DNA of 64,000 nt from Alphaproteobacteria bacterium (lineage in GTDB: Bacteria > Pseudomonadota > Alphaproteobacteria > RF32 > CAG-239). Shown here piece by piece: positions 1,038-64,000 of this stretch (position 1 is its first letter; each line of letters opens with the position of its first letter). The stretch lies in the NCBI GenBank assembly GCA_017480745.1, contig JAFUSA010000005.1, positions 4,462 through 68,461 of the forward strand, written 5' to 3'. Both the position numbers and the translations under genes were made by a program. Below the pieces are notes generated by a model. That model saw nothing but the letters and a program-made list of their open reading frames with translations, did not search any database and was not told the DNA's origin.

Positions 1038-1181
1038 CACCAATACAAACGGCAGGTATAAAAACCGCCGTTTTTTCTTTTTAAATCAATCACTTATATG
1101 AGTTCAGATGTTGTATTTTTGAAAATGCGCGTTTTGGGAAATTTTACGAACTGGTTGAGGTATAAATGCCATAAAATCAAA
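1038..1181 (+). repeat. Intergenic repeat, copy A: CACCAATA box, hairpin plus T-run, then GAAAATGCGCGTTTTGGGAAATTTTACGAAC core
   Basis: Aligned by eye with 1719-1973 and 2577-2717. Shared blocks are caccaata, a stem-loop followed by ttttttctttttaaatcaa, and the core gaaaat(g/a)(c/g)(g/c)(c/t)gttttgggaaattttacgaac (1121-1151). Confidence 0.7.
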
Positions 1182-1299
1182 CCGTTATAAAAAAATTCCG
1201 TTTTTTGTAAAAAATACTTGACAAAAAATCAGAATAGAGATAAAATGAAGCTACAAAAGACATTTATTTATATTAAATAACCAAACAAGGAAAATTGTG

Positions 1300-1713
1300 A
1301 TGAGCGTGCAAGAGAAAATCGCCAAGATAAAAGATAAAGCAGCCAAACTAGCTGTTAAAGCGGCTGCAGTGGCAACCATGATGACCGGTGCAGGTGTTGC
1401 CGGCAGTTGTGCTGAAAATTGCGCTAATACTGATGAAACCAAAGACAAAATTGAGAATACGGAAAAGACTTCTGTTGTTTTCAGATCTACTCACAATAGC
1501 TATAGACTTTTCACTGATTCCAATATCTTAACGGAAGATGGCGATGAGCTTTGTGTTGATGATAAAGACCGTTTTCTTGAGCCGGGCGATACGATAACTT
1601 ATGAAACAGGTCGTTCAGGTATTACCAAGGTTAAAGCCGTCAGATATAAAAACGGAAATAAAAACGTTAATTTCGGCAAAATCGGTAAAATCGGAAAAGA
1701 TATAACAGACTAA
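1300..1713 (+). CDS. Hypothetical protein with N-terminal Ala-rich hydrophobic segment
   Basis: ORF 1297-1713. ATG at 1300 follows AAGGA at 1287-1291. TTGACA (1218-1223), 17 nt, then TAAAAT (1241-1246) lies upstream. I recognise no family. Confidence 0.45.
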   Translation: MSVQEKIAKIKDKAAKLAVKAAAVATMMTGAGVAGSCAENCANTDETKDKIENTEKTSVVFRSTHNSYRLFTDSNILTEDGDELCVDDKDRFLEPGDTITYETGRSGITKVKAVRYKNGNKNVNFGKIGKIGKDITD

Positions 1714-1718
1714 TTTGC

Positions 1719-1973
1719 AAACTGCAAAGTAAGTATTACCAATAAGAAGCATCCTTTATGGGTGCTTTTTTTATTGGTGATACGAAGTCTACTTAATGAG
1801 CCAAAGCGGAAGCAGAGGCGAATTTAGTAAACAAGTGACCGAAGCTTAAATTTTCCGCTGCAAAATCATAAAATTAAATTTAAGCAGGACAAGTCCCGTT
1901 ATGTTTTCAAAAATGCGCATTTTGGGAAATTTTACGAACCAATTGTGGTAAGAATATCATAAAATCAAATGAT
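1719..1973 (+). repeat. Intergenic repeat, copy B (split by ~130 bp of extra sequence)
   Basis: The 5' part, aaactgcaaagtaagtattaccaata plus hairpin and T-run (1719-1770), matches copy C. The core aaaatgcgcattttgggaaattttacgaacc (1910-1941) contains the perfect 14-bp palindrome AAAATGCGCATTTT. Confidence 0.65.
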
Positions 1974-2067
1974 TAGCTGATTATAATTGGCTAAAATTGT
2001 GAGTTATTAGTTTATCTGATATTGATTTTTTGTTGATTTTAGTGTGTAATCTTTTCAGAGGTATAAA

Positions 2068-2571
2068 ATGAAAATCATAAATATCAATGGTCCGATAAAT
2101 TCCGGTAAAACGACAATATCCAAATTGCTCAAAGAAAAATTATCTCAAAGTCTTTTTGTTGAGGTAGACGAGCTTCTTTTGGATGATGAACAGGAAAAGT
2201 TAAAATTAACTCGAGAACAAGGTTGGGAGGAAAGATTAAAAAGGCTTGATGAAGTTATCACTCGAGAGAAAAAATTACAACGCTATGATAATATTATTTT
2301 TGCATATCCGATGACCGATAAAACTTATCATCAATGGAGGTTATGGGAAGATGATAATACGAAATTTATCAATATTTCTTTAGCTCCGAATATTGACATT
2401 TGTTTGCAAAATCGCGGAACTCGAGAATTGCGTGAAAATGAAAAAACAAGAATAAAGCAAATGTATCAAGAAGGTTATCATTGTTCAAAATTTGCAGATT
2501 TAATTATTGATAACAGTATACAAACTCCTCAAGAAACTTTGCAAAAAATTTTAGTTTTTTTAAGAAAATAG
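2068..2571 (+). CDS. P-loop NTPase / small-molecule kinase-like protein
   Basis: 167 aa. Walker A GPINSGKTT at the N-terminus. Size and layout resemble AAA_33 or shikimate-kinase-like small kinases. GAGG RBS at 2057-2060. Confidence 0.5.
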   Translation: MKIININGPINSGKTTISKLLKEKLSQSLFVEVDELLLDDEQEKLKLTREQGWEERLKRLDEVITREKKLQRYDNIIFAYPMTDKTYHQWRLWEDDNTKFINISLAPNIDICLQNRGTRELRENEKTRIKQMYQEGYHCSKFADLIIDNSIQTPQETLQKILVFLRK

Positions 2572-2576
2572 CTCGT

Positions 2577-2717
2577 AAACTGCGAGGTAAGCATCACCAA
2601 TACAGGCTCTAAATTGCCTGTTTTTTCTTTTTAAATCAAGCATTTAAACGAGTTCGGATGTTTGTTTTTTGAAAATAGCTGTTTTGGGAAATTTTACGAA
2701 CCGATTGTGATAAAATT
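2577..2717 (+). repeat. Intergenic repeat, copy C
   Basis: aaactgcgaggtaagcatcaccaata, then hairpin CAGGC..GCCTG plus ttttttctttttaaatcaa, then core gaaaatagctgttttgggaaattttacgaacc (2671-2702). It starts 6 nt after the stop of the preceding gene. Confidence 0.7.
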
Positions 2718-2931
2718 ATTCATGTTCTTCAAATAATAATTAATTTTAGTATATTATTCTATAAAATCAGCTTGCATCTTAAAAATTGTTTAAATCAGAA
2801 CTTTACATAATGAATAAACAAAACACCACACAAAAGAATACTAACCCCTAATTTGAGAGAGCTTTTTTGTTTTAATTATTTGTTAATGGAGAATAAGATA
2901 TACTGAATGGAAGATTCAAAACAGATAAAAG

Positions 2932-3795
2932 GTGCTTATTGATTTGAAAAAAAATCTTAAAGTATGTGTTTGCTATCATCGACCGGCATTTGTTTTTGAA
3001 GAAGAGTGTTTTGTGCCAATGTGGTCAGGAAAAGATGTTGCTCATGAAATTTCCAAAGAAGGTAGTGCACTTTCAGAAGAACAAATTGATTGGATGGAAA
3101 AGCATTGTGTTGGAGATAATACCGGAGATAACATATCCAAAGAGAATCGTAAATATTCAGAAATAACTGTTTTATATTGGGTTTGGAAAAATTATGCTAA
3201 ACTTGGCAATCCGAAATATATAGGTTTTATGCAATACAGACGGCATTTTTTGTTAGATTGTAATAGTTTCAATGGTATAGAAGCTGATCACTTTAATCAG
3301 GTTTATATTGATAAAATTCCAGATGATTATGCTAAAAATATAGGTCTTACAGAAAAAAATATTTTAAATATTTTAGAAAATTATGACGGTATTGTTGCCT
3401 GTAACGATACAAAACAAAGTATCAGAAATTATAATGAAACGCATTGTTCACAAGATATTAAATATTATAACAAAACGTTGGAAATTATTGATAATGATTG
3501 GCCAGATATATCTTTTGCCGCACATCATTATGAAAAAGAGACGTATCACTCTTGGTCGCAATGCTTTGTAATTCAAAAAGAGCATTTTTTTGAATATTGC
3601 GAATTTTTGTTTGATGTTTTGAAAAAACTTGATGTTTTCTGCAAAGATGATTATCAAAAATTAAGTGTTGAGCAACAAAGAATTTTAGGATATGCGGCTG
3701 AAAATCTTTGGGGTATTTATTGGAGATATTTAACTGATAAAGGATTAAAATTTAAATGTGTTCCATTGATTTTTAACAAAAATCCTTTTATTTGA
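2932..3795 (+). CDS. DUF4422-like putative polysaccharide glycosyltransferase
   Basis: 287 aa, GTG start. The overall pattern (VCYHRP.., YSEITVLYWVWKN, FMQYRRHF, ILGYAAENLWGIYW) resembles, from memory, DUF4422 exopolysaccharide biosynthesis proteins. Confidence 0.5.
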   Translation: MLIDLKKNLKVCVCYHRPAFVFEEECFVPMWSGKDVAHEISKEGSALSEEQIDWMEKHCVGDNTGDNISKENRKYSEITVLYWVWKNYAKLGNPKYIGFMQYRRHFLLDCNSFNGIEADHFNQVYIDKIPDDYAKNIGLTEKNILNILENYDGIVACNDTKQSIRNYNETHCSQDIKYYNKTLEIIDNDWPDISFAAHHYEKETYHSWSQCFVIQKEHFFEYCEFLFDVLKKLDVFCKDDYQKLSVEQQRILGYAAENLWGIYWRYLTDKGLKFKCVPLIFNKNPFI

Positions 3796-4401: not shown

Positions 4402-4502
4402 AAAATAATCTATCAACACAATTATACTGCATAACACAAAATTATGTTTACTTTTATGAATAATTACATATAATCCTCTCGATTTTGATAAGGAGTCTTT
4501 AT

Positions 4503-5976: not shown

Positions 5977-6242
5977 TTGACTTTTGCATTTTTTATGATA
6001 TAGTGAGGGAAGAACTTCGGTTCGGAGCTTTGACAAGCTCTTGCTAAGTTAGGTGTTTTAGGACACCGTAGTAAAGATATAATGAATATCTCCGATGTGG
6101 TCGGGGAGCCTGTGATGGATGTTCAGGGCTTCTGCCTAAAGATTACAGGAATCGTTTAACTTAGCATGATTTGTCAACTCTCCGATCGCCGTTTGGCGGT
6201 CTGTTTTTTTTAATAAACAACTTTAACAGAGGAGATAAAATT
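5977..6242 (+). promoter_or_regulatory. Promoter plus type B structured leader of pilin-like gene P1
   Basis: TTGACT (5977-5982), 16 nt, then TGaTATAGT (5996-6004). The leader has GAAC-UUCG-GUUC (6012-6023). A long-range pairing joins GCUAAGUUA (6043-6051) to UAACUUAGC (6157-6165). The box GUCAACUCUCC (6173-6183) precedes the hairpin GAUCGCC-GUUU-GGCGGUC (6184-6201), which is followed by a T8 run. Confidence 0.7.
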
Positions 6243-6893
6243 ATGAAAAATTTTGAAATTAAAAATGAGTCCGGCAGAAGTATGATAGAAATGTTAGGCG
6301 TGCTTGCCATCATTGGTGTTTTGAGTGTTGGCGGAATCGCCGGATACAGCAAGGCGATGACTAAATATAGAATCAACAAAACCATTGAACAAATAACTCT
6401 TATTGCCGGTAATGTGCGTGCGTTCTTTGCTCCGCAACACAATTATGATGGACTTGACAGCTGCTCTGATGATAACTCTTATTGCAAATTAATCAGAAAA
6501 GCCAAACTAATACCGGATGAAATGTGGGATGATACTTATAAAAGATTTAAAAATGTGTTTGGGTATAGGGTTGATTTAATGACGAAAAATAGGTCTACTG
6601 ATGGCGACAAGCAGGCATTTGATATTTATTACTCTATAGGAGATAATATGGAAACCTGTATAGAATTGTTAAGTTACGACTGGCGTATGTCTGGTGCGCA
6701 AGCTATTCAAATCGGTGGTCCCGCGGGGGCTGTTAATTTTAAACTTCCCGTTGCCGTAGATAAAGCTGTTGAGGCATGTTCGGAAACTATCAGTAAAAAC
6801 CGGATGTATGGAGGATCCTTTCCTGATATGCTTTTTTTCTTTGATATAAATTTAAACAGCACATATTGGAGTTCTTTGACTTGGGCAAATTAG
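6243..6893 (+). CDS. Type IV pilin-like protein P1 (class III signal peptide)
   Basis: MKNFEIKNESG|RSMIEMLGVLAIIGVLSVGGIAGYSKAM. Gly at -1, Glu at +5, then a hydrophobic helix. ATG at 6243 follows GAGGAGA. The ORF-track extension to 6171 runs through the leader RNA. Confidence 0.85.
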   Translation: MKNFEIKNESGRSMIEMLGVLAIIGVLSVGGIAGYSKAMTKYRINKTIEQITLIAGNVRAFFAPQHNYDGLDSCSDDNSYCKLIRKAKLIPDEMWDDTYKRFKNVFGYRVDLMTKNRSTDGDKQAFDIYYSIGDNMETCIELLSYDWRMSGAQAIQIGGPAGAVNFKLPVAVDKAVEACSETISKNRMYGGSFPDMLFFFDINLNSTYWSSLTWAN

Positions 6894-25442: not shown

Positions 25443-26219
25443 TTAATTTGCCCAAATACTGTTTTTCCAATATTCGCTATTGACATCAACATCGAAGTAG
25501 AAAGTCAGATTAATGCTATCTTTGTCATAAAGAGCTGAATCCTCTTCTATGGCTTTTGAACATACTTCAACTGCCTTATCAACGCTTACCGGAGTTTTTA
25601 GAAATGCATCGTAATCTCCAGAATCTCCCATAACATATATTGCTTTAACATTAGCATTGCTCCAATCATGAGTTGTCAACTCAATACATGCTTCTTCATT
25701 ATTTATAAGGTAATAAATACTAAACGCCTGATTATCATAGAGTTTGGATTTATCTTCTGTACCTAACGTAACCCCACCACCGAAAGGATTGGTAATAGAC
25801 ATAATCTTACCATCAGTTACAGTAATCATTTCATCTGGTAATATTTTGGCTTTTTTAACTATCGGACAGCCATTGTAAGCACCGGTAGGTTTTCCTTGTG
25901 CATTAACGCCGGAAGCACCCCAGCAACCGGAGGCATCGCAAGTGCTATCATCTTTACTACCGCAACGCACCCCGATATAATTCTTCTGTGGTCCCCAAAA
26001 GGCACGCACATTTCCGGCAATGAGAGTTGTTTGCTCAATTGTTTTGTTAATACGATATTTCATCATGGCCTTGCTGTATCCGGCGATTCCACCTACCGAT
26101 AAAACGCCAATGATAGCGAGCACGCCAAGCATTTCTATCATTGAACGACCGCTCTGTGCATTTTTCGTCATTGCGAGCGCAGCGTGGCAATCTGTATTTT
26201 TTATTTTTAAGTTTCTCAT
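25443..26219 (-). CDS. Type IV pilin-like protein P2
   Basis: MRNLKIKNTDCHAALAMTKNAQSG|RSMIEMLGVLAIIGVLSVGGIAGYSKAM. ATG at 26219 is preceded by the invariant AAAGGAAGTTTACT. The C-terminus is closest to P1 (..YW..WAN). Confidence 0.85.
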   Translation of the reverse strand: MRNLKIKNTDCHAALAMTKNAQSGRSMIEMLGVLAIIGVLSVGGIAGYSKAMMKYRINKTIEQTTLIAGNVRAFWGPQKNYIGVRCGSKDDSTCDASGCWGASGVNAQGKPTGAYNGCPIVKKAKILPDEMITVTDGKIMSITNPFGGGVTLGTEDKSKLYDNQAFSIYYLINNEEACIELTTHDWSNANVKAIYVMGDSGDYDAFLKTPVSVDKAVEVCSKAIEEDSALYDKDSINLTFYFDVDVNSEYWKNSIWAN

Positions 26220-26457
26220 AGTAAACTTCCTTTCATTATTAAAATACCTACAAAACGATACCGCCCTTATGAGGCGGTCGGAAGTTGACAACTATCACGA
26301 TAATAGTATGAGCTATTTGAATTATCTTATTCACCCATCTTCCAACCATAAAGTCGGAAATTATTTAACGTCCTTACGACGATCGTGAGAGGTTGTCACA
26401 CCCCAGACGAGTTACCTCATCTTGTGTTTATATTATCACAAAAAATCTAAAAGTCAA
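26220..26457 (-). promoter_or_regulatory. Promoter plus type A structured leader (P2 copy)
   Basis: Minus strand: TTGACT (26452-26457), TGaTAATAT (-10 at 26430-26435). H1 AGAUGAG-GUAA-CUCGUCU (26405-26422). Anti-SD box (26278-26287). Hairpin CCGCC..GGCGG (26261-26277). SD GGAAGUU (26224-26230). Confidence 0.75.
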
Positions 26458-29853: not shown

Positions 29854-30000
29854 TTTCTTTAATGTTAAAGTAACTCTGCTGATTTATGGAAATTAGCGGG
29901 GTTTTTGCTTGTTTTTTTTTGCAAAAAAATATTTGACTTTTAATTTTTTATAAAACAGACGTATATCAGTTGCTTCTTTTCTTATTAAAATCAAATATGT

Positions 30001-32950: not shown

Positions 32951-33610
32951 TTATTCAGTCCAATAAGTTGAGTTGGCATCAACATCAAATAATAAACCCA
33001 AAAATGAATGACCATCTTCACAAAATTTCACTGATGTATCAATGTCAACCGGAACATGTAAATATTGATATTTTGTATCAACGTCAGGTGAAGTTATTAT
33101 TTTTACTCCGGCAGAAGTCCAATCATATGTGATAAGTTCTACACAGGCTTCTTCAGGAATATTAGTAAACCAGATACCAAAAGCTTTATTATCTCCACCA
33201 AATATTCCCTCACTTTTATCGATTGCTCCAAAACTATTTATACTTTCTCCAAAAGCACTTGTCATGCCGGTAATTTTTCCTGTGGATCTATCAAATATCA
33301 ACATTTCATCCGGCACTAACTTTGCTTTTTGAATAATTGCTTTTCCTGTATCTGTTGACAAATCTAATCCCGCATAATTTCCCTGAGGAGCAAAAAAAGT
33401 CCGCACATTACCGGCGATGAGAGTTATTTGCTCAATAGTTTTGTTAATTCTATACTTCATCATCGCCTTGCTGTATCCGGCGATTCCGCCTACCGATAAA
33501 ACGCCGATGATGGCAAGAACGCCCAACATCTCTATCATTGAACGTCCGGATTGGCTCCCTCGCCCCTTGCGGGAGAGAGAATCATTATTTTTTATTTTTA
33601 AGTTTCTCAT
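32951..33610 (-). CDS. Type IV pilin-like protein P3
   Basis: MRNLKIKNNDSLSRKGRGSQSG|RSMIEMLGVLAIIGVLSVGGIAGYSKAM. Same SD context as P2, P4 and P5. Confidence 0.85.
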   Translation of the reverse strand: MRNLKIKNNDSLSRKGRGSQSGRSMIEMLGVLAIIGVLSVGGIAGYSKAMMKYRINKTIEQITLIAGNVRTFFAPQGNYAGLDLSTDTGKAIIQKAKLVPDEMLIFDRSTGKITGMTSAFGESINSFGAIDKSEGIFGGDNKAFGIWFTNIPEEACVELITYDWTSAGVKIITSPDVDTKYQYLHVPVDIDTSVKFCEDGHSFLGLLFDVDANSTYWTE

Positions 33611-33852
33611 AGTAAACTTCCTTTCATTTAACTAAATCACTAATAAAAACGACACCGCCCGATAAAGGCGGCCGGAAGTTGACGACTATTTTAGCTTAAA
33701 TAGTGTTGCGTATTCGCATATAACCTATTCCGCAACCTTCCAGCCACAGCTGGATTTTTTACGCCCATAAGGCGAAGCTAAAAGAGGTCGTCAAACCCCA
33801 GACAAGTTACCTTATCTTGTCTTTACTATATCATAAAAAACTTAAAAGTCAA
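33611..33852 (-). promoter_or_regulatory. Promoter plus type A structured leader (P3 copy)
   Basis: Minus strand: TTGACT (33847-33852), TGaTATAGT (-10 at 33825-33830). H1 AGAUAAG-GUAA-CUUGUCU (33800-33817). Box (33672-33683). Hairpin CCGCC..GGCGG (33655-33671). SD (33615-33621). Confidence 0.75.
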
Positions 33853-33911: not shown

Positions 33912-34805
33912 TTATTTAAAACTATATCCTCTCAGCAACTCGGCAATACTCATTGTTCGCTTGCCCTGACGCTGAATTTGCGTAATATTCAACGAACCAC
34001 CGCTAACCCCAATATGTAACTCATTGCCTGCTTGTTTGATTGTTCCGACAGGCAGAGAAACGTCGCCTTTTTCTGCTCGTATAATCTTAAATCTTTCGCC
34101 GTTATACTCAAAATACATTGCCGGATATGGGCTGAAAGCACGAATCTTATTATAAAGAGCATCTACTGACTGTGTAAAATCCAGCAAGCACTCGGCTTTA
34201 TCTATTTTTTGCGCATAACAGGCCAAAGCATCATCTTGTTTTTGCGGAGAATATTTTTTTACATCTGACAAAACATCACTAATTAAATCTGCACCAAGCA
34301 CTGCTAATTTATCGTGCAATTCTTCACCGTCAGTATGCGGAGAAATTGCCACTATTCCTTTATGCAACATATCTCCGGTATCCAGTCCCTCAGCGACCTG
34401 CATAATTGTAACTCCGCTTTGTGTATCTCCGGCTTCTATAGCTCTTTGTATTGGTGCTGCACCACGCCAACGCGGTAATAATGAAGCATGAATATTCAAA
34501 CACCCTAACGGACAAGCCTCTAAAACAGGCTTAGGCAAAATCAGACCGTAAGCAGCCACCACCGCAACATCGGCTTTCAAATCCGCAAACTTCTGCTGTT
34601 CCTCAACATTTCGCAATGTTTTAGGGGTGCGAACTTCTATGCCGTTTTCTTCTGCCAATAAATGTATAGGAGTTTTATTTAACTTATTTCCTCTACCCGC
34701 CGGCTTTGGCTCACGGGTATAAACGCAAATAACGTTATGTTCCCTGATCAAACGGCGGAGCGCCGGCACAGCAAAGTCCGGCGTTCCCATAAATACGACT
34801 TTCAT
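33912..34805 (-). CDS. fmt: Methionyl-tRNA formyltransferase
   Basis: MKVVFMGTPDFAVP..., HASLLPRWRGAAPIQRAI. Confidence 0.9.
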   Translation of the reverse strand: MKVVFMGTPDFAVPALRRLIREHNVICVYTREPKPAGRGNKLNKTPIHLLAEENGIEVRTPKTLRNVEEQQKFADLKADVAVVAAYGLILPKPVLEACPLGCLNIHASLLPRWRGAAPIQRAIEAGDTQSGVTIMQVAEGLDTGDMLHKGIVAISPHTDGEELHDKLAVLGADLISDVLSDVKKYSPQKQDDALACYAQKIDKAECLLDFTQSVDALYNKIRAFSPYPAMYFEYNGERFKIIRAEKGDVSLPVGTIKQAGNELHIGVSGGSLNITQIQRQGKRTMSIAELLRGYSFK

Positions 34806-42169: not shown

Positions 42170-42826
42170 TTAATACGATGAACTATGTGCAGAATCAAAA
42201 TTTTTAACATCAACGAAAAAAGTTAAATCATACGAGCTATGATTTGCAAGGTCTTCACATATTGTGTTAGCTAACTCTAAATCAACCGGTGTTACCGCAT
42301 GTTTATGCTCACCACCTCCAATATAAGCTCCGACAGCGGTAATATTGGCAGTACTCCAATCCTGACTGACTATTTCAATACAAGCTTCTTGCGGAATGGA
42401 GCCTACATAAATCATAAAACCGTCTAATCCAATATAACCGCCGTCATCTTGCAGAGATACTGCATTTCCAAATGCTCCGGTAATTGCAGTAATTTTACCG
42501 GTAGCACTATCAACTGTTACCATCTCATCAGGGAATATTTTGGCTTTTTTAACTATCGGACAGCCATCTTTAGAAGATTGACCAGAGCAACCGGCACTAT
42601 AGCAATAACAATACACCCCATCATAATTTCTCTGATTTGAAAAAAATGTTCGCACATTTCCGGCAATGAGTGTTATTTGCTCAATGGTTTTGTTGATGCG
42701 ATACTTCATCATTGCCTTGCTGTATCCGGCGATTCCGCCAACAGAGAGAACACCAATTATAGCAAGAACTCCCAACATCTCAATCATTGAACGTCCGTTT
42801 TGATTTTTTATTTTTAAGTTATTCAT
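42170..42826 (-). CDS. Type IV pilin-like protein P4
   Basis: MNNLKIKNQNG|RSMIEMLGVLAIIGVLSVGGIAGYSKAM. Shortest (11 aa) leader peptide. Confidence 0.85.
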   Translation of the reverse strand: MNNLKIKNQNGRSMIEMLGVLAIIGVLSVGGIAGYSKAMMKYRINKTIEQITLIAGNVRTFFSNQRNYDGVYCYCYSAGCSGQSSKDGCPIVKKAKIFPDEMVTVDSATGKITAITGAFGNAVSLQDDGGYIGLDGFMIYVGSIPQEACIEIVSQDWSTANITAVGAYIGGGEHKHAVTPVDLELANTICEDLANHSSYDLTFFVDVKNFDSAHSSSY

Positions 42827-43066
42827 AGTAAACTTCCTTTCATCAAATTAGTTATTTCATTACAAAATTAACCGCCCACTGAGGCGGCCGGAAGTTGGAA
42901 ACTATACATAGAAATAGTGAGATCTATTTGATATAACCTATTCAATCTCCTTCCGACCAAAGTCGGAAACATTTTACGTTTAGACAACGCCTATGTAGAG
43001 GTTTCCACACCTCAGACGAGTTACCTCATCGTGGTTTTATTATACAATAAAAAATTTCAAAGTCAA
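42827..43066 (-). promoter_or_regulatory. Promoter plus type A structured leader (P4 copy)
   Basis: Minus strand: TTGACT (43061-43066), TGTATAAT (-10 at 43039-43044). H1 GAUGAG-GUAA-CUCGUC (43014-43031). Box (42888-42898). Hairpin CCGCC..GGCGG (42872-42887). SD (42831-42837). Confidence 0.75.
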
Positions 43067-48990: not shown

Positions 48991-49234
48991 TTGACATTTA
49001 AGTTTTTTATGGTATCATAAAAACAAGATGAGGTAACTTGTCTGGGGTGTCGAAACCTCTCAACTTTCGTCTGTTATGGACGTTAAATTTTCCAGCATGG
49101 CTGGAAGGTTGCAGAATAAGAATGAGTATCGAATATGCAACACTGTTTAAAGTTGACAGTTTCGAACTTCCGGCCACCTCATGAGGTGGTTAATTTTGTA
49201 ATGAAATAACTAATTTAATGAAAGGAAGTTTACT
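48991..49234 (+). promoter_or_regulatory. Promoter plus type A structured leader (P5 copy, reference copy)
   Basis: Promoter: TTGACA (48991-48996), 16 nt, then TGgTATCAT (49010-49018).
Helices: H1 49026-49043 (GUAA loop), H2 49044-49059, H3 49068-49082, H4 49090-49106, H5 49142-49160.
Platform: box AACUUCC 49165-49171, palindromic hairpin CCACCUCAUGAGGUGG 49174-49189 followed by a U-rich tract, SD GGAAGUU 49224-49230. Confidence 0.8.
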
Positions 49235-49930
49235 ATGAAAAACTTTGATACAAAAAATATTCAAATTAATTTTAATCAAGCGGAAGATGCCTTGACGATT
49301 CCTGCGGAATCGAGGCATGACCATAAGTGTGGCTCTACCACACAAAGCGGTCGCTCAATGATAGAAATGCTTGGCGTGTTAGCCATTATCGGTGTGTTAT
49401 CGGTGGGCGGCATCGCCGGATATTCAAAAGCCATGCAAAAATATCGCATCAACAAAACCATTGAACAAATAACTCTTATTGCCGGCAATGTGCGTGCATT
49501 TTTTGCTCCGCAAAGAAATTATGACGACTTATCAACCAATGTTATCAAAAAAGCCAAACTTGTACCCGATGAAATGTGGGATGGTGGAAGTGACACTAAT
49601 CCGGTTAACGCATTTGGAGGAAATTTTGTGTTTTCTGCTGAGAATTTAACATCTGCTTCCAATATATCGGGTTCTTTTGTTATTATGATTGATTCTATTC
49701 CGCAAGAAGCCTGTATTGAAATAGCCACTATGGATTGGCGCGCAGATTCCGGAAATTCTGTTGTTAATATTTCTGTTAACGGTACTATGGATGAAACATT
49801 AGCGCAATATACAGATAATTGCACAGACAGTGCTCACAATGTTTGTGCAAAAAATATGCCGATGGATATTGCAACGGCTTCAAATGCTTGCAGTTCAGAT
49901 GAAAATTTTATAGGTATTAAGTTCTATTAA
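49235..49930 (+). CDS. Type IV pilin-like protein P5
   Basis: A 39-aa leader peptide ending ..TTQSG|RSMIEMLGVLAIIGVLSVGGIAGYSKAM. Divergent C-terminal domain with KKAKLVPDEM and IPQEACIEI motifs shared with the family. Confidence 0.85.
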   Translation: MKNFDTKNIQINFNQAEDALTIPAESRHDHKCGSTTQSGRSMIEMLGVLAIIGVLSVGGIAGYSKAMQKYRINKTIEQITLIAGNVRAFFAPQRNYDDLSTNVIKKAKLVPDEMWDGGSDTNPVNAFGGNFVFSAENLTSASNISGSFVIMIDSIPQEACIEIATMDWRADSGNSVVNISVNGTMDETLAQYTDNCTDSAHNVCAKNMPMDIATASNACSSDENFIGIKFY

Positions 49931-55585: not shown

Positions 55586-55930
55586 GCGATCCGCTTACGT
55601 CTGTGGTGTCAAGACCTCTTTTACGTGCGCCGTTCGTGGCGTTAAAATATTTCCGACAATGGTCGGAAGGTTGTGGAATAAATGTGGATGAATACGCAAC
55701 ACTATTTAAGCTAAAATAGTCTTGAACTTCCGGCCGCCTTAGTGGGTGGAATTGCCGGATATTCGAAAGCAATGATGAAATATCGTATTAACAAAACCAT
55801 TGAACAAATCACTTTGATTGCCGGCAATATCCGCACCTTTTTTGCCCCGCAGAGGAGTTATGCAGATTTAAACAACAGCACTATTCTTAAAAAAGCAAAA
55901 CTTGTTCCTGAGGAAATGATAGAATTATAG
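55586..55930 (+). pseudogene. Decayed pilin-like locus: promoterless type A leader remnant fused to an internally and C-terminally truncated pilin ORF
   Basis: Residues 55586-55748 align with leader A from H2 onward (H3, H4, GAAUAA, H5, box, 5' arm of the hairpin). The sequence then jumps directly into codons for GIAGYSKAMMKYRINKTIEQITLIAGNIRTFFAPQ and stops at 55928-55930 after ..KKAKLVPEEMIEL. No SD, start codon, signal peptide or C-terminal domain remains. Confidence 0.8.
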
Positions 55931-62414: not shown

Positions 62415-62590
62415 TTTAACTTTTGATTTTTCTATGGTATGGTAAAACTAAGATAAGGTAACTTGTCTGAGGTCTCAAAACCTCTCAAGATCGTCTTTAC
62501 GGGCGTAAAATTTCCGGCATTATGGTCGGAAGGTAGTTGAATAAGAGAAATCTAATAAGCTGCACTATTTAATTTGGATAGTTTCGAACT
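62415..62590 (+). ncRNA. Orphan type A leader with intact promoter and no downstream pilin gene
   Basis: TTTAAC (62415-62420), 17 nt, then TGgTATGGT (62435-62443). H1 AGAUAAG-GUAA-CUUGUCU (62451-62468), H2, H3, H4, GAAUAAG and H5 are all present. Homology stops after GUUUCGAACU (62590). The next element is the terminator at 62612-62647. Confidence 0.6.
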
Positions 62591-62611
62591 AATAAAATAT
62601 CTATTATTCGC

Positions 62612-62647
62612 AAAAAAAAACACCTTCCTTACGGATGGTGTTTTTTT
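62612..62647. terminator. Bidirectional intrinsic terminator
   Basis: A9 run, then CACCTTCC-ttac-GGATGGTG (one mismatch), then a T7 run. Lies between the orphan leader (+) and rplI (-). Confidence 0.75.
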
Positions 62648-63898: not shown

Positions 63899-64000
63899 TT
63901 TACATTTGCAACCTTTATGATAGTATAGATTCAGAACTTCGGTTCGAGAGCCTTAAGAAGCTCTTACTTATCACGGTGTTATTTTCGAAGCATCGTTAGA
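63899..64000 (+). promoter_or_regulatory. Promoter plus 5' part of a second type B leader (cut by window end)
   Basis: TTTACA (63899-63904), 16 nt, then TGaTAGTAT (63918-63926). GAAC-UUCG-GUUC (63934-63945) and GAGAGC..GCUCU follow, collinear with 6012-6040 of the P1 leader. Confidence 0.6.

Follow-up and report, generated by a model that had tools for sequence, protein, structure and literature searches.

Riboswitches of the c-di-GMP-I and c-di-GMP-II classes (c-di-GMP, cyclic diguanosine monophosphate) are found in many copies before pilin and adhesin genes, and neither the GEMM-I nor the GEMM-II topology is a double pseudoknot. The SAM-II, preQ1-II/III and c-di-GMP-II aptamers are H-type pseudoknots and can be considered structural analogues only of the RNA described here; we know of no described family in which an interlocked double pseudoknot is set within a three-way junction. 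Such an arrangement appears in the type A leader, a structured RNA of ~190 nucleotides (nt) that lies upstream of pilin genes in the window, that is, the whole 64,000-nt stretch (positions 4,462 to 68,461 of contig JAFUSA010000005.1, assembly GCA_017480745.1) of a metagenome-assembled Alphaproteobacteria bacterium with a low G+C content (~37%). Together with a second form, type B, this leader makes up a new RNA family, absent from Rfam, of leaders of the switch type that are built around an interlocked double pseudoknot. The named RNA closest to it is sRNA-Xcc1 (RF02221), which may be a branch that has been truncated or is processed. This is a stable 88-nt RNA with mapped ends (PMC2996969) that is present in multiple copies in Xylella (7 in Temecula1) and is linked to mobile elements (PMC12189769). 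Unlike the leaders, sRNA-Xcc1 is described as a trans-acting small RNA (sRNA); in Xanthomonas integron cassettes, it is found upstream of symE.

At the gathering thresholds of Rfam 15, neither the window nor a set of 20 type B loci gave a match, and two type B loci from cultured organisms gave none at E values up to 1. No riboswitch in Rfam matched the leader in sequence or structure. The c-di-GMP-I and c-di-GMP-II models had no match at the gathering threshold, nor at E values up to 10, in the whole window and in a 401-nt stretch. The only recurring sub-threshold match was sRNA-Xcc1, with 26-29 bits against a gathering cut-off of 53, and no description of the leader was found in the literature on alphaproteobacterial pilin riboswitches, on RF32, on DUF5818, on structured RNAs of rhizobial plasmids and on Frpo and leading-region promoters, or in the genome surveys of the Breaker laboratory. 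The original prediction, which was made from the sequence of the window and assigned the leader to no known family, is borne out by these scans and is essentially right as a whole; the leader is more elaborate and has a far wider distribution than it reported. Few structured RNAs that are both large and widespread still turn up outside Rfam, and this one stands out by the unusual interlocked double-pseudoknot core, a complete, readable expression platform and hundreds of members, which occur in uncultured Alphaproteobacteria of the gut and rumen and extend to conjugative plasmids of Rhizobium, Agrobacterium, Bradyrhizobium and Methylobacterium.

The fold of the type A leader

All fold elements are numbered here as in the copy that starts at 49019 on the plus strand. 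This copy follows a predicted sigma-70-type promoter (48991-49018; TTGACA, 16 nt, TG-extended TATCAT) that agrees with the consensus at 11 of 12 positions; a comparable -35/-10 pair, recognized by its match to the consensus, ends 20-26 nt ahead of helix H2 in 85 of 100 copies from other genomes. The 5'-terminal hairpin H1 (49026-49043, AGAUGAG-GUAA-CUUGUCU) is succeeded by the H2 hairpin (49044-49059), which consists of a stem of 4 base pairs (bp; 49044-49047/49056-49059, GGGG/CCUC), a UG linker and a loop (49050-49055) that is the 5' strand of the pseudoknot helix PK1. Next come the 5' strand of the second pseudoknot helix, PK2 (49061-49067, CAACUUU; partner 49149-49155), the optional hairpin H3 (49068-49082, CGUC...GACG) and an A-rich linker (49083-49089). 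Segment 1 (49090-49096, UUCCAGC) is the 5' arm of an alternative helix, H4, whereas segment 2 (49099-49107, GGCUGGAAG), which resembles a Shine-Dalgarno (SD) sequence, is at once the 3' arm of H4 and the 5' strand of helix P1. P2 (49108-49141) is made up of P2a (49108-49113/49136-49141), an internal loop (GAAUA 49114-49118/AAUA 49132-49135) and the variable hairpin P2b (49119-49131). The invariant A49142 and P3 occupy 49142-49159 (stem 49143-49146/49156-49159), the loop of P3 (49149-49155) being the 3' strand of PK2, and the 3' strand of PK1 (UUUCGA, paired with the H2 loop at 49050-49055) together with the invariant spacer A49166 takes up 49160-49166. Segment 3 (49167-49175, CUUCCGGCC) supplies the 3' strand of P1, with CUUCC as an anti-SD and GGCC as the base of the 5' arm of a terminator. 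P1 itself is a 9-bp helix (49099-49107/49167-49175, GGYYGGAAG/CUUCCRRCC) that closes a three-way junction. Further downstream are the terminator-like hairpin H6 (49172-49201, GGCCACCUCAUGAGGUGGUU plus a U-rich tail, detected by a terminator scan), the SD region GGAAGUU (49224-49230) and the start codon (49235-49237) of a type IVb pilin gene (49235-49930), the product of which matches Pfam PilS and Bundlin.

This fold is supported by covariation. A pattern scan of a species-representative genome collection yielded at least 86 loci, and the covariance model matches (E<1e-10) in these loci and in the window make up a set of 104 copies, 21 of which do not fit the search pattern and therefore serve as an unbiased check on conservation. 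When 40 copies are aligned with MAFFT, blind to structure, 93.9% of the pair cells are paired, compared with 75.0% in shuffles and 33-47% with slid partners, and double changes occur in 320 cells versus 102 in shuffles. Across the 104 model-aligned copies, the respective values are 97.3% versus 78.1% (at most 44% in slid controls) and 795 double changes versus 215, with none of 500 shuffles as high. Covariation is strong in H2, H3, P1, P2a, P2b, P3 and PK1. In the 104 copies, the paired fraction amounts to 99.5% for P3, 98.7% for P2a, where all six pairs covary, and 98.1% for PK1, with up to five pair types per position; P1 is 99.2-99.5% paired, H2, which shows covariation among divergent copies, is 99% paired, and H3 is 95.1% paired, with covariation in 4 of 4 pairs. 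Among the paired cells, G-U combinations outnumber A-C combinations 198 to 25, so that the sense strand is the folding strand.

PK2 is 68% paired on the MAFFT columns, which are unfit for this helix because gaps shift the register, and was assessed instead by an anchored test that contrasts pairing within copies with pairing between copies. In this test, the two strands of PK2 match perfectly (7 of 7) within 62 of 80 copies but in only 0.75% of the mismatched combinations, with 67 distinct sequences represented; for PK1, the match is perfect within 66 of 80 copies versus 2.2% of the mismatched combinations, with 36 distinct sequences. The 14 failures of PK1 are largely parsing slips, and the same applies to most of the PK2 failures. 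The unpaired RAAUA, AAUA, A49142 and A49166 are invariant within type A, including the 21 pattern-independent copies, in which H2, P3 and the inner half of P1 do not vary in sequence either. A hairpin of at least 5 bp is present at the position of H1 in 93 of 101 copies, with a minimum free energy of -7.1 kcal/mol versus -2.3 for shuffles. The loop sequence of H1 is not conserved, a GNRA loop being found in 10 of 101 copies, and docking of a GNRA tetraloop by H1 was rejected for this reason.

PK2, P3 and PK1 adjoin one another in such a way that 49149-49165 would form one continuous 17-nt strand that is paired throughout to three partners in turn. H2 and P3 are both 4 bp long, and the 5' strand of PK1 continues directly into the 3' arm of H2; hence, H2 would have to lie alongside P3. 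The core thus appears to consist of two mirror-image H-type pseudoknots that are interlocked with each other. As in the H-type aptamers, the loop of a hairpin finds its pairing partner in a distant strand, the second stem is spanned by a pyrimidine-rich linker of 2 nt, and no spacer separates the two adjoining stems; the leader differs in that two such units are interlocked in mirror orientation around H2 and P3, within a three-way junction. Type B shares the helix lengths and the 2-nt linkers with type A, and the spacers are the same or close.

The claim that the leader is a structured RNA with compensatory base changes is hence fully supported, the covariation being far beyond that of shuffles and the fold residing in the sense strand. 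The six-helix fold originally proposed is incomplete: H1, H3, H4, H5 (P3 in the present nomenclature) and H6 exist, but P1, P2, PK1 and PK2 were missed. The supposed 5-bp H2 is a real stem of 4 bp (GRGG/CCUC), whereas its fifth 'pair' belongs to the linker and PK1, and H1 is a genuine hairpin, the GUAA tetraloop of which is local to the window genome. The pairing in H3 holds, though some lineages lack this hairpin. Of the block GAAUARG, which had been read as single-stranded, GAAUA is indeed unpaired and invariant, but it lies opposite AAUA in an internal loop within the P2 helix. The reading of CAACUUCCGG as single-stranded was mistaken: it is the 3' strand of the 9-bp P1, which competes with H4.

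Expression platform and the proposed switch

H4 (49090-49096/49100-49106) and P1 share the bases of segment 2 and are therefore mutually exclusive; both covary. H4 is 93.2% paired, with three covarying positions, and contains more G-U pairs and mismatches than P1. The H4 hairpin is predicted in 95 of 102 copies with a mean of -9.6 kcal/mol, the mean for the P1 duplex being -13.8, and in these energy estimates, the two helices are of similar strength. On the 3' side of P1, 88 of 100 copies carry a hairpin with a U tract, and in 68 of these 88, the 5' arm of the terminator-like hairpin overlaps the 3' strand of P1 by 3-4 nt. The configuration characteristic of intrinsic terminators, a G+C-rich hairpin directly before a U tract, is found at 49172-49191 followed by AAUUUUGU, and a terminator function is predicted. 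Together with the AA in front of it, the CUUCC of segment 3 forms a complement of the SD region. Correspondingly, GGAAGTT accompanies 39 of 79 leader-associated genes versus 1 of 312 other genes of the same loci, and at least 7 contiguous base pairs to AACUUCCA are possible for 54% of the leader genes as opposed to 2% of the controls. For the 49019 copy, an energy model limited to nested pairs combines H4, the terminator and the AACUUCC:GGAAGUU pairing, which amounts to an OFF-like state (z = -2.93). A riboswitch is expected to join a covarying structured domain in the 5' untranslated region (UTR) to mutually exclusive pairings that overlap a terminator and an SD, and this is the combination found here.

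Taken together, these features indicate that the leader is probably a cis-acting 5' RNA of ~190 nt that is transcribed from its own sigma-70-type promoter and operates as a two-state switch on the downstream gene. The double-pseudoknotted core, closed by P1, would be the sensor domain and would decide which pairing forms among four output segments, namely the pyrimidine-rich segment 1, the SD-like segment 2 (GGYYGGAAG), segment 3, which comprises the anti-SD and the terminator base (CUUCC-RRYC), and segment 4, the SD itself (GGAAGUU). In the putative OFF state, segments 1 and 2 would pair (H4) and leave segment 3 free; the last 3-4 bases of segment 3 could then finish the terminator stem while its CUUCC pairs with the SD, and either transcription would terminate or the ribosome site would be hidden. 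In the putative ON state, segments 2 and 3 would pair (P1), the terminator, deprived of its bottom pairs, would be read through, and the SD would be open. We infer both this assignment of the ON and OFF states and the response of the core to an outside signal.

The logic is reminiscent of the trp-type attenuators with their four segments (1:2/2:3/3:4), in which complementarity likewise overlaps and the 2:3 pairing blocks 3:4. In contrast to these, the leader has no conserved leader peptide, the choice apparently being set by the tertiary fold of the RNA, and segment 4 is divided between the terminator arm and the SD, so that both termination and initiation are affected. Attenuation by a leader peptide was rejected because the sole small open reading frame (ORF; AUG-AGG-UAA in H1) is not conserved beyond the window genome. 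The suggestion of a riboswitch or an attenuator in the original prediction agrees well with the promoter, the exclusive covarying helices, the terminator overlap and the anti-SD/SD match, but 'riboswitch' is still a candidate label for this leader.

The signal is most likely a small molecule that, by analogy with kinetic ON riboswitches, would stabilize P1 during transcription; control by a protein or an sRNA is the chief alternative. A small molecule is favored by the invariant core, by the two balanced alternative helices and by a terminator that has to be outrun, as well as by a list of downstream genes that resembles second-messenger regulons. With the c-di-GMP riboswitches, the leader shares an aptamer-like fold closed by a P1 helix, the 3' strand of which is common to the terminator and the anti-SD, the presence of many copies per genome and the association with genes for pili, adhesins, lipoproteins and polysaccharides, to which PAS-GGDEF genes are added in type B.

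It is possible, if only tentatively proposed, that the leaders constitute a new, very widespread riboswitch class with the interlocked double pseudoknot as its aptamer, in which a global signal stabilizes P1 and thereby relieves termination and unmasks the ribosome site together. In that case, the signal would be a nucleotide second messenger or another small molecule, gut Alphaproteobacteria would use it to switch on a whole set of pili and surface proteins, accessory genes on rhizobial and agrobacterial conjugative plasmids would be switched on as well, and sRNA-Xcc1 would be a truncated or processed relative of the class. Several observations weigh against a ligand-driven switch. No metabolic theme that might hint at a ligand unites the downstream genes. 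The internal loop of P2 is invariant within type A but different in type B, which makes one shared ligand pocket at this loop doubtful. Many copies are paralogous, and the SD/anti-SD match could in part be due to common inheritance with the leader; moreover, the overlap with the terminator is only 3-4 nt long, and the hairpin after P1 has no U tract in some of the GC-rich type B copies. A scan of the long ORFs in the type A loci (198,000 residues) found no GG[DE]EF motif, which is weak evidence but weakens the idea, put forward in the original prediction, of c-di-GMP as the signal in the gut lineage.

It appears unlikely that the leader is a constitutive structured 5' UTR that, with no sensing of its own, stabilizes the mRNA or tunes the translation of abundant exported proteins. 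Under this scenario, H4 would be a folding intermediate, and any regulation would be due to a leader-binding protein or an sRNA. The great diversity of the downstream genes, the high copy number (~25 loci in a single metagenome-assembled genome among the matches listed), the 5'-terminal hairpin in 93 of 101 copies and the difference in the P2 loop between types A and B would all fit, and P1, which is stronger than H4, could form by default. A merely transient helix, however, is not expected to covary and persist in both types, a built-in terminator combined with an anti-SD that tracks the SD would be costly if unused, and the nested energy model prefers the OFF-like fold.

There is even less to recommend a stand-alone trans-acting sRNA that is freed by termination at H6 or by processing, such that the position upstream of genes is secondary; we consider this improbable. 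The idea derives from the weak Rfam similarity to sRNA-Xcc1 across the three-way junction (29.4 bits at 49099-49183, 28.4 bits at 42878-42958 and 26.3 bits in one type B locus) and from the existence of that RNA as a stable, multi-copy species with mapped ends; the terminator after the fold and an orphan copy (62445-62594) would also be compatible with it. The whole sRNA-Xcc1 model (positions 1-87) aligns to P1-P2-P3 and has the three-way junction, with a 9-10 bp G-rich closing helix (GGYCGGGG../..CCCCGRCC), two hairpins, of which the first has an internal loop rich in A and U and the second is short, and a 6-7 nt junction followed by ACC. The Rfam model lacks, however, the 5' domain (H1, H2, PK1, PK2 and H4), whereas the type A junction is preceded by ~85 nt of a covarying 5' domain behind a predicted promoter. 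The scores fall short of membership in the sRNA-Xcc1 family, the remaining window copies were not reported at E values up to 10, and a blastn search of plasmids with the Rfam Xcc1 consensus gave no match. Furthermore, 95 of the 104 copies have a gene call behind them, usually within ~100 nt and with an SD that fits segment 3; the pseudoknot strands, which are variable, find their partners inside the molecule and not in other copies; and the orphan copy is truncated and has no terminator. Conversely, the view of sRNA-Xcc1, which is annotated as a trans-acting, virulence-linked sRNA, may change.

Double pseudoknots are typical of the HDV (hepatitis delta virus), twister and glmS ribozymes, and a self-cleaving ribozyme in the 5' UTR could be envisaged on account of the double-pseudoknot core, in which unpaired A and U residues are invariant; in sRNA-Xcc1, the P1-like helix begins right at the mapped 5' end of the RNA, which could reflect processing. 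This is highly improbable considering that no Rfam ribozyme matched even in permissive scans, that the terminator and anti-SD platform would be superfluous and that, to our knowledge, the known small ribozymes are not tied to one gene class behind a dedicated promoter. A DNA-level element, be it an invertible promoter, a recombination cassette or a repeat similar to miniature inverted-repeat transposable elements, in which the helices are by-products of inverted repeats or paralogy, would explain the dispersed repeats that include the promoter and the existence of one recombinant, chimeric copy but is hardly credible given the strand asymmetry (198 G-U versus 25 A-C), the covariation of short helices and pseudoknots across many sequence types and non-homologous gene contexts, the lack of reported flanking inverted repeats around the promoter and the ties of the helices to the terminator and the SD. 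A single-stranded-DNA promoter of the Frpo kind is ruled out by the sense-strand fold and its coupling to the terminator and SD.

Downstream genes and the type B form

The original prediction located the leader upstream of pilin-like genes. This is true of four type A copies in the window, which precede type IVb pilin genes (Pfam PilS/Bundlin); across the type A loci, the leader precedes genes for many kinds of exported or surface proteins. The genes downstream of type A leaders encode 24 type IVb pilins and ~30 members of an uncharacterized secreted family (N-terminus ...TMTVTATI...), along with BspA-type leucine-rich repeat proteins, lipoproteins, DUF805 and RgpF proteins and glycosyltransferases. 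An N-terminal hydrophobic segment of the export type is present in 76 of 82 (93%) of these diverse proteins versus 91 of 304 control ORFs, and the type A leader is therefore not specific for pilins. Within the gut lineage, the leader is a mark of exported and surface proteins; because it precedes most of the pilin and surface-protein genes seen in the analyzed loci, it is probably the main control point of surface presentation in these bacteria.

The related type A copies come from records labelled Alphaproteobacteria bacterium that originate from human, rabbit and ruminant gut. A single rumen genome (RGIG4937, JAFUYI01 contigs) contains ~25 pattern-matching loci among the matches listed. The leaders of this genome (loci L012-L084) mostly precede paralogs of an uncharacterized secreted family, proteins of ~170 amino acids with a signal peptide followed by ...NSATMTVTATIAHDVSL... 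and no Pfam match. An archaeal pattern match (L043) had no match to the covariance model and is attributed to chance.

The type B leader was recognized in the window at 5978-6242 (plus strand), upstream of the fifth pilin gene of the window (6243-6893); it has the architecture of type A but a different core sequence. The covariance model R1, which was built for the type A core from H2 to P1, scores this copy at 26.7 bits (E 3.7e-4) at 6022-6191. Inspection by eye reveals H1, H2, PK1 (UGACAA/UUGUCA), PK2, H4, P1 (GGUCGGGGAG/CUCUCCGAUC), a terminator with U8 and the SD GAGGAGA. The start of a second type B leader is found at 63925-64000 (plus strand), continuing past the end of the window; it has the same type of promoter, and its H1 (GAAC-UUCG-GUUC) and H2 (GAGC/GCUC) are identical to those of the first.

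A pattern derived from two type B copies retrieved at least 120 metagenome loci from soil, peat, marine and sludge samples, with a mean G+C content of 58%. PK1 finds its partner within the copy in 91 of 102 loci and PK2 in 68 of 102, versus ~1% of mismatched combinations, with a spacing as in type A, and 97 of the 102 are predicted to form a hairpin like H4. In 52 of 100 type B loci, the type A model aligns in full length at the site of the pattern, with 24-47 bits. In the GC-rich type B leaders, P1 becomes GGGGAG/CUCCCC, and the downstream SD shifts along with it: GGGGAG with a start codon is found in 22 of 99 type B loci versus 1.5% of control windows. The genes that follow type B leaders encode PAS-GGDEF, XRE, RovC-type, DUF5818 and DUF429 proteins and lipoproteins, and many are of unknown function; a hydrophobic N-terminus is present in 21 of the 54 downstream proteins.

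By blastn, type B was detected in 156 plasmids, all alphaproteobacterial and mostly rhizobial, of which 128 are conjugative; the hosts are Rhizobium (55), Agrobacterium (49), Bradyrhizobium (19), Methylobacterium (8) and others. Nearly all of the plasmid matches, among those listed, fall in unannotated intergenic DNA, and the model confirms type B at ~34447-34616 of pB in R. etli CIAT 652 and at ~105052-105224 of p1METDI in M. extorquens DM4. A blastn search for type B in E. coli genomes gave no match. Since relatives of the leader occur in genetically tractable organisms, the mechanism and any ligand are directly testable.

The GC-rich type B copies (loci L091-L210) have an additional conserved hairpin after P1 with the loop GGGCGNA (e.g., GUUUGCGG-GGGCGCA-CCGCAAAC), and the H1 loop of such copies is conserved as NACGCR. 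A kissing contact between these two loops is conceivable.

Other copies and neighboring features in the window

All six copies of the original prediction were recovered with R1 (71-117 bits), which was run over the window with filters off: 49041-49179 (plus strand, 116.6 bits), 42882-43016 (minus, 113.5), 26272-26407 (minus, 107.4), 33666-33802 (minus, 104.3), 55600-55739 (plus, 103.2) and 62466-62594 (plus, 71.5). After these, the best remaining match in the window is the type B copy with its 26.7 bits. In the alignment of the window copies, homology spans the entire region from the common promoter to the start codon. Three of the leaders are on the minus strand, each upstream of a pilin gene identified by Pfam: 42827-43038 precedes the gene at 42170-42826, 33611-33824 the gene at 32951-33610 and 26220-26424 the gene at 25443-26219. 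The pilin precursors encoded at 49235-49360, 33480-33610 and 26100-26219 have unusually long and variable N-terminal extensions, of up to ~40 residues in the case of the 49235 gene, ahead of the G/RSMIEMLGVLAIIGVLS cleavage region, which is itself conserved.

The copy at 55586-55748 (plus strand) is decayed and chimeric and is joined to a 5'-truncated pilin fragment. PK2 pairs at 5 of 7 positions in this copy, and H2 carries a U-U mismatch. The copy is a recombinant: 55690-55740 is 96% identical to 33665-33715, whereas the 5' half differs, which explains why its PK2 no longer pairs. The directly joined pilin fragment (55742-55870) is 81% identical to 49403-49531.

The orphan copy (62445-62594, plus strand) ends within the AACU of segment 3, has neither a downstream gene nor a terminator and looks like a deletion remnant. 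It adjoins a hairpin (62610-62640) that is flanked by runs of A and U, beside the L9 gene (62664-63149, minus strand). A promoter-like block at 29914-29956 (plus strand; TTTTTGCAAAAA..TTTGAC..N..TATAAAAC) is followed by neither a leader nor a gene on the same strand. Finally, 1070-2731 (plus strand) contains a conserved stretch of 72-96 nt (GTT..TTTTGAAAATGCGC.TTTTGGGAAATTTTACGAAC...) that is directly repeated three times at a spacing of ~770 nt, each copy being located upstream of an ORF (1297-1713, 2068-2571 and 2932-3795); these repeats are an unrelated upstream element or a tandem gene family.

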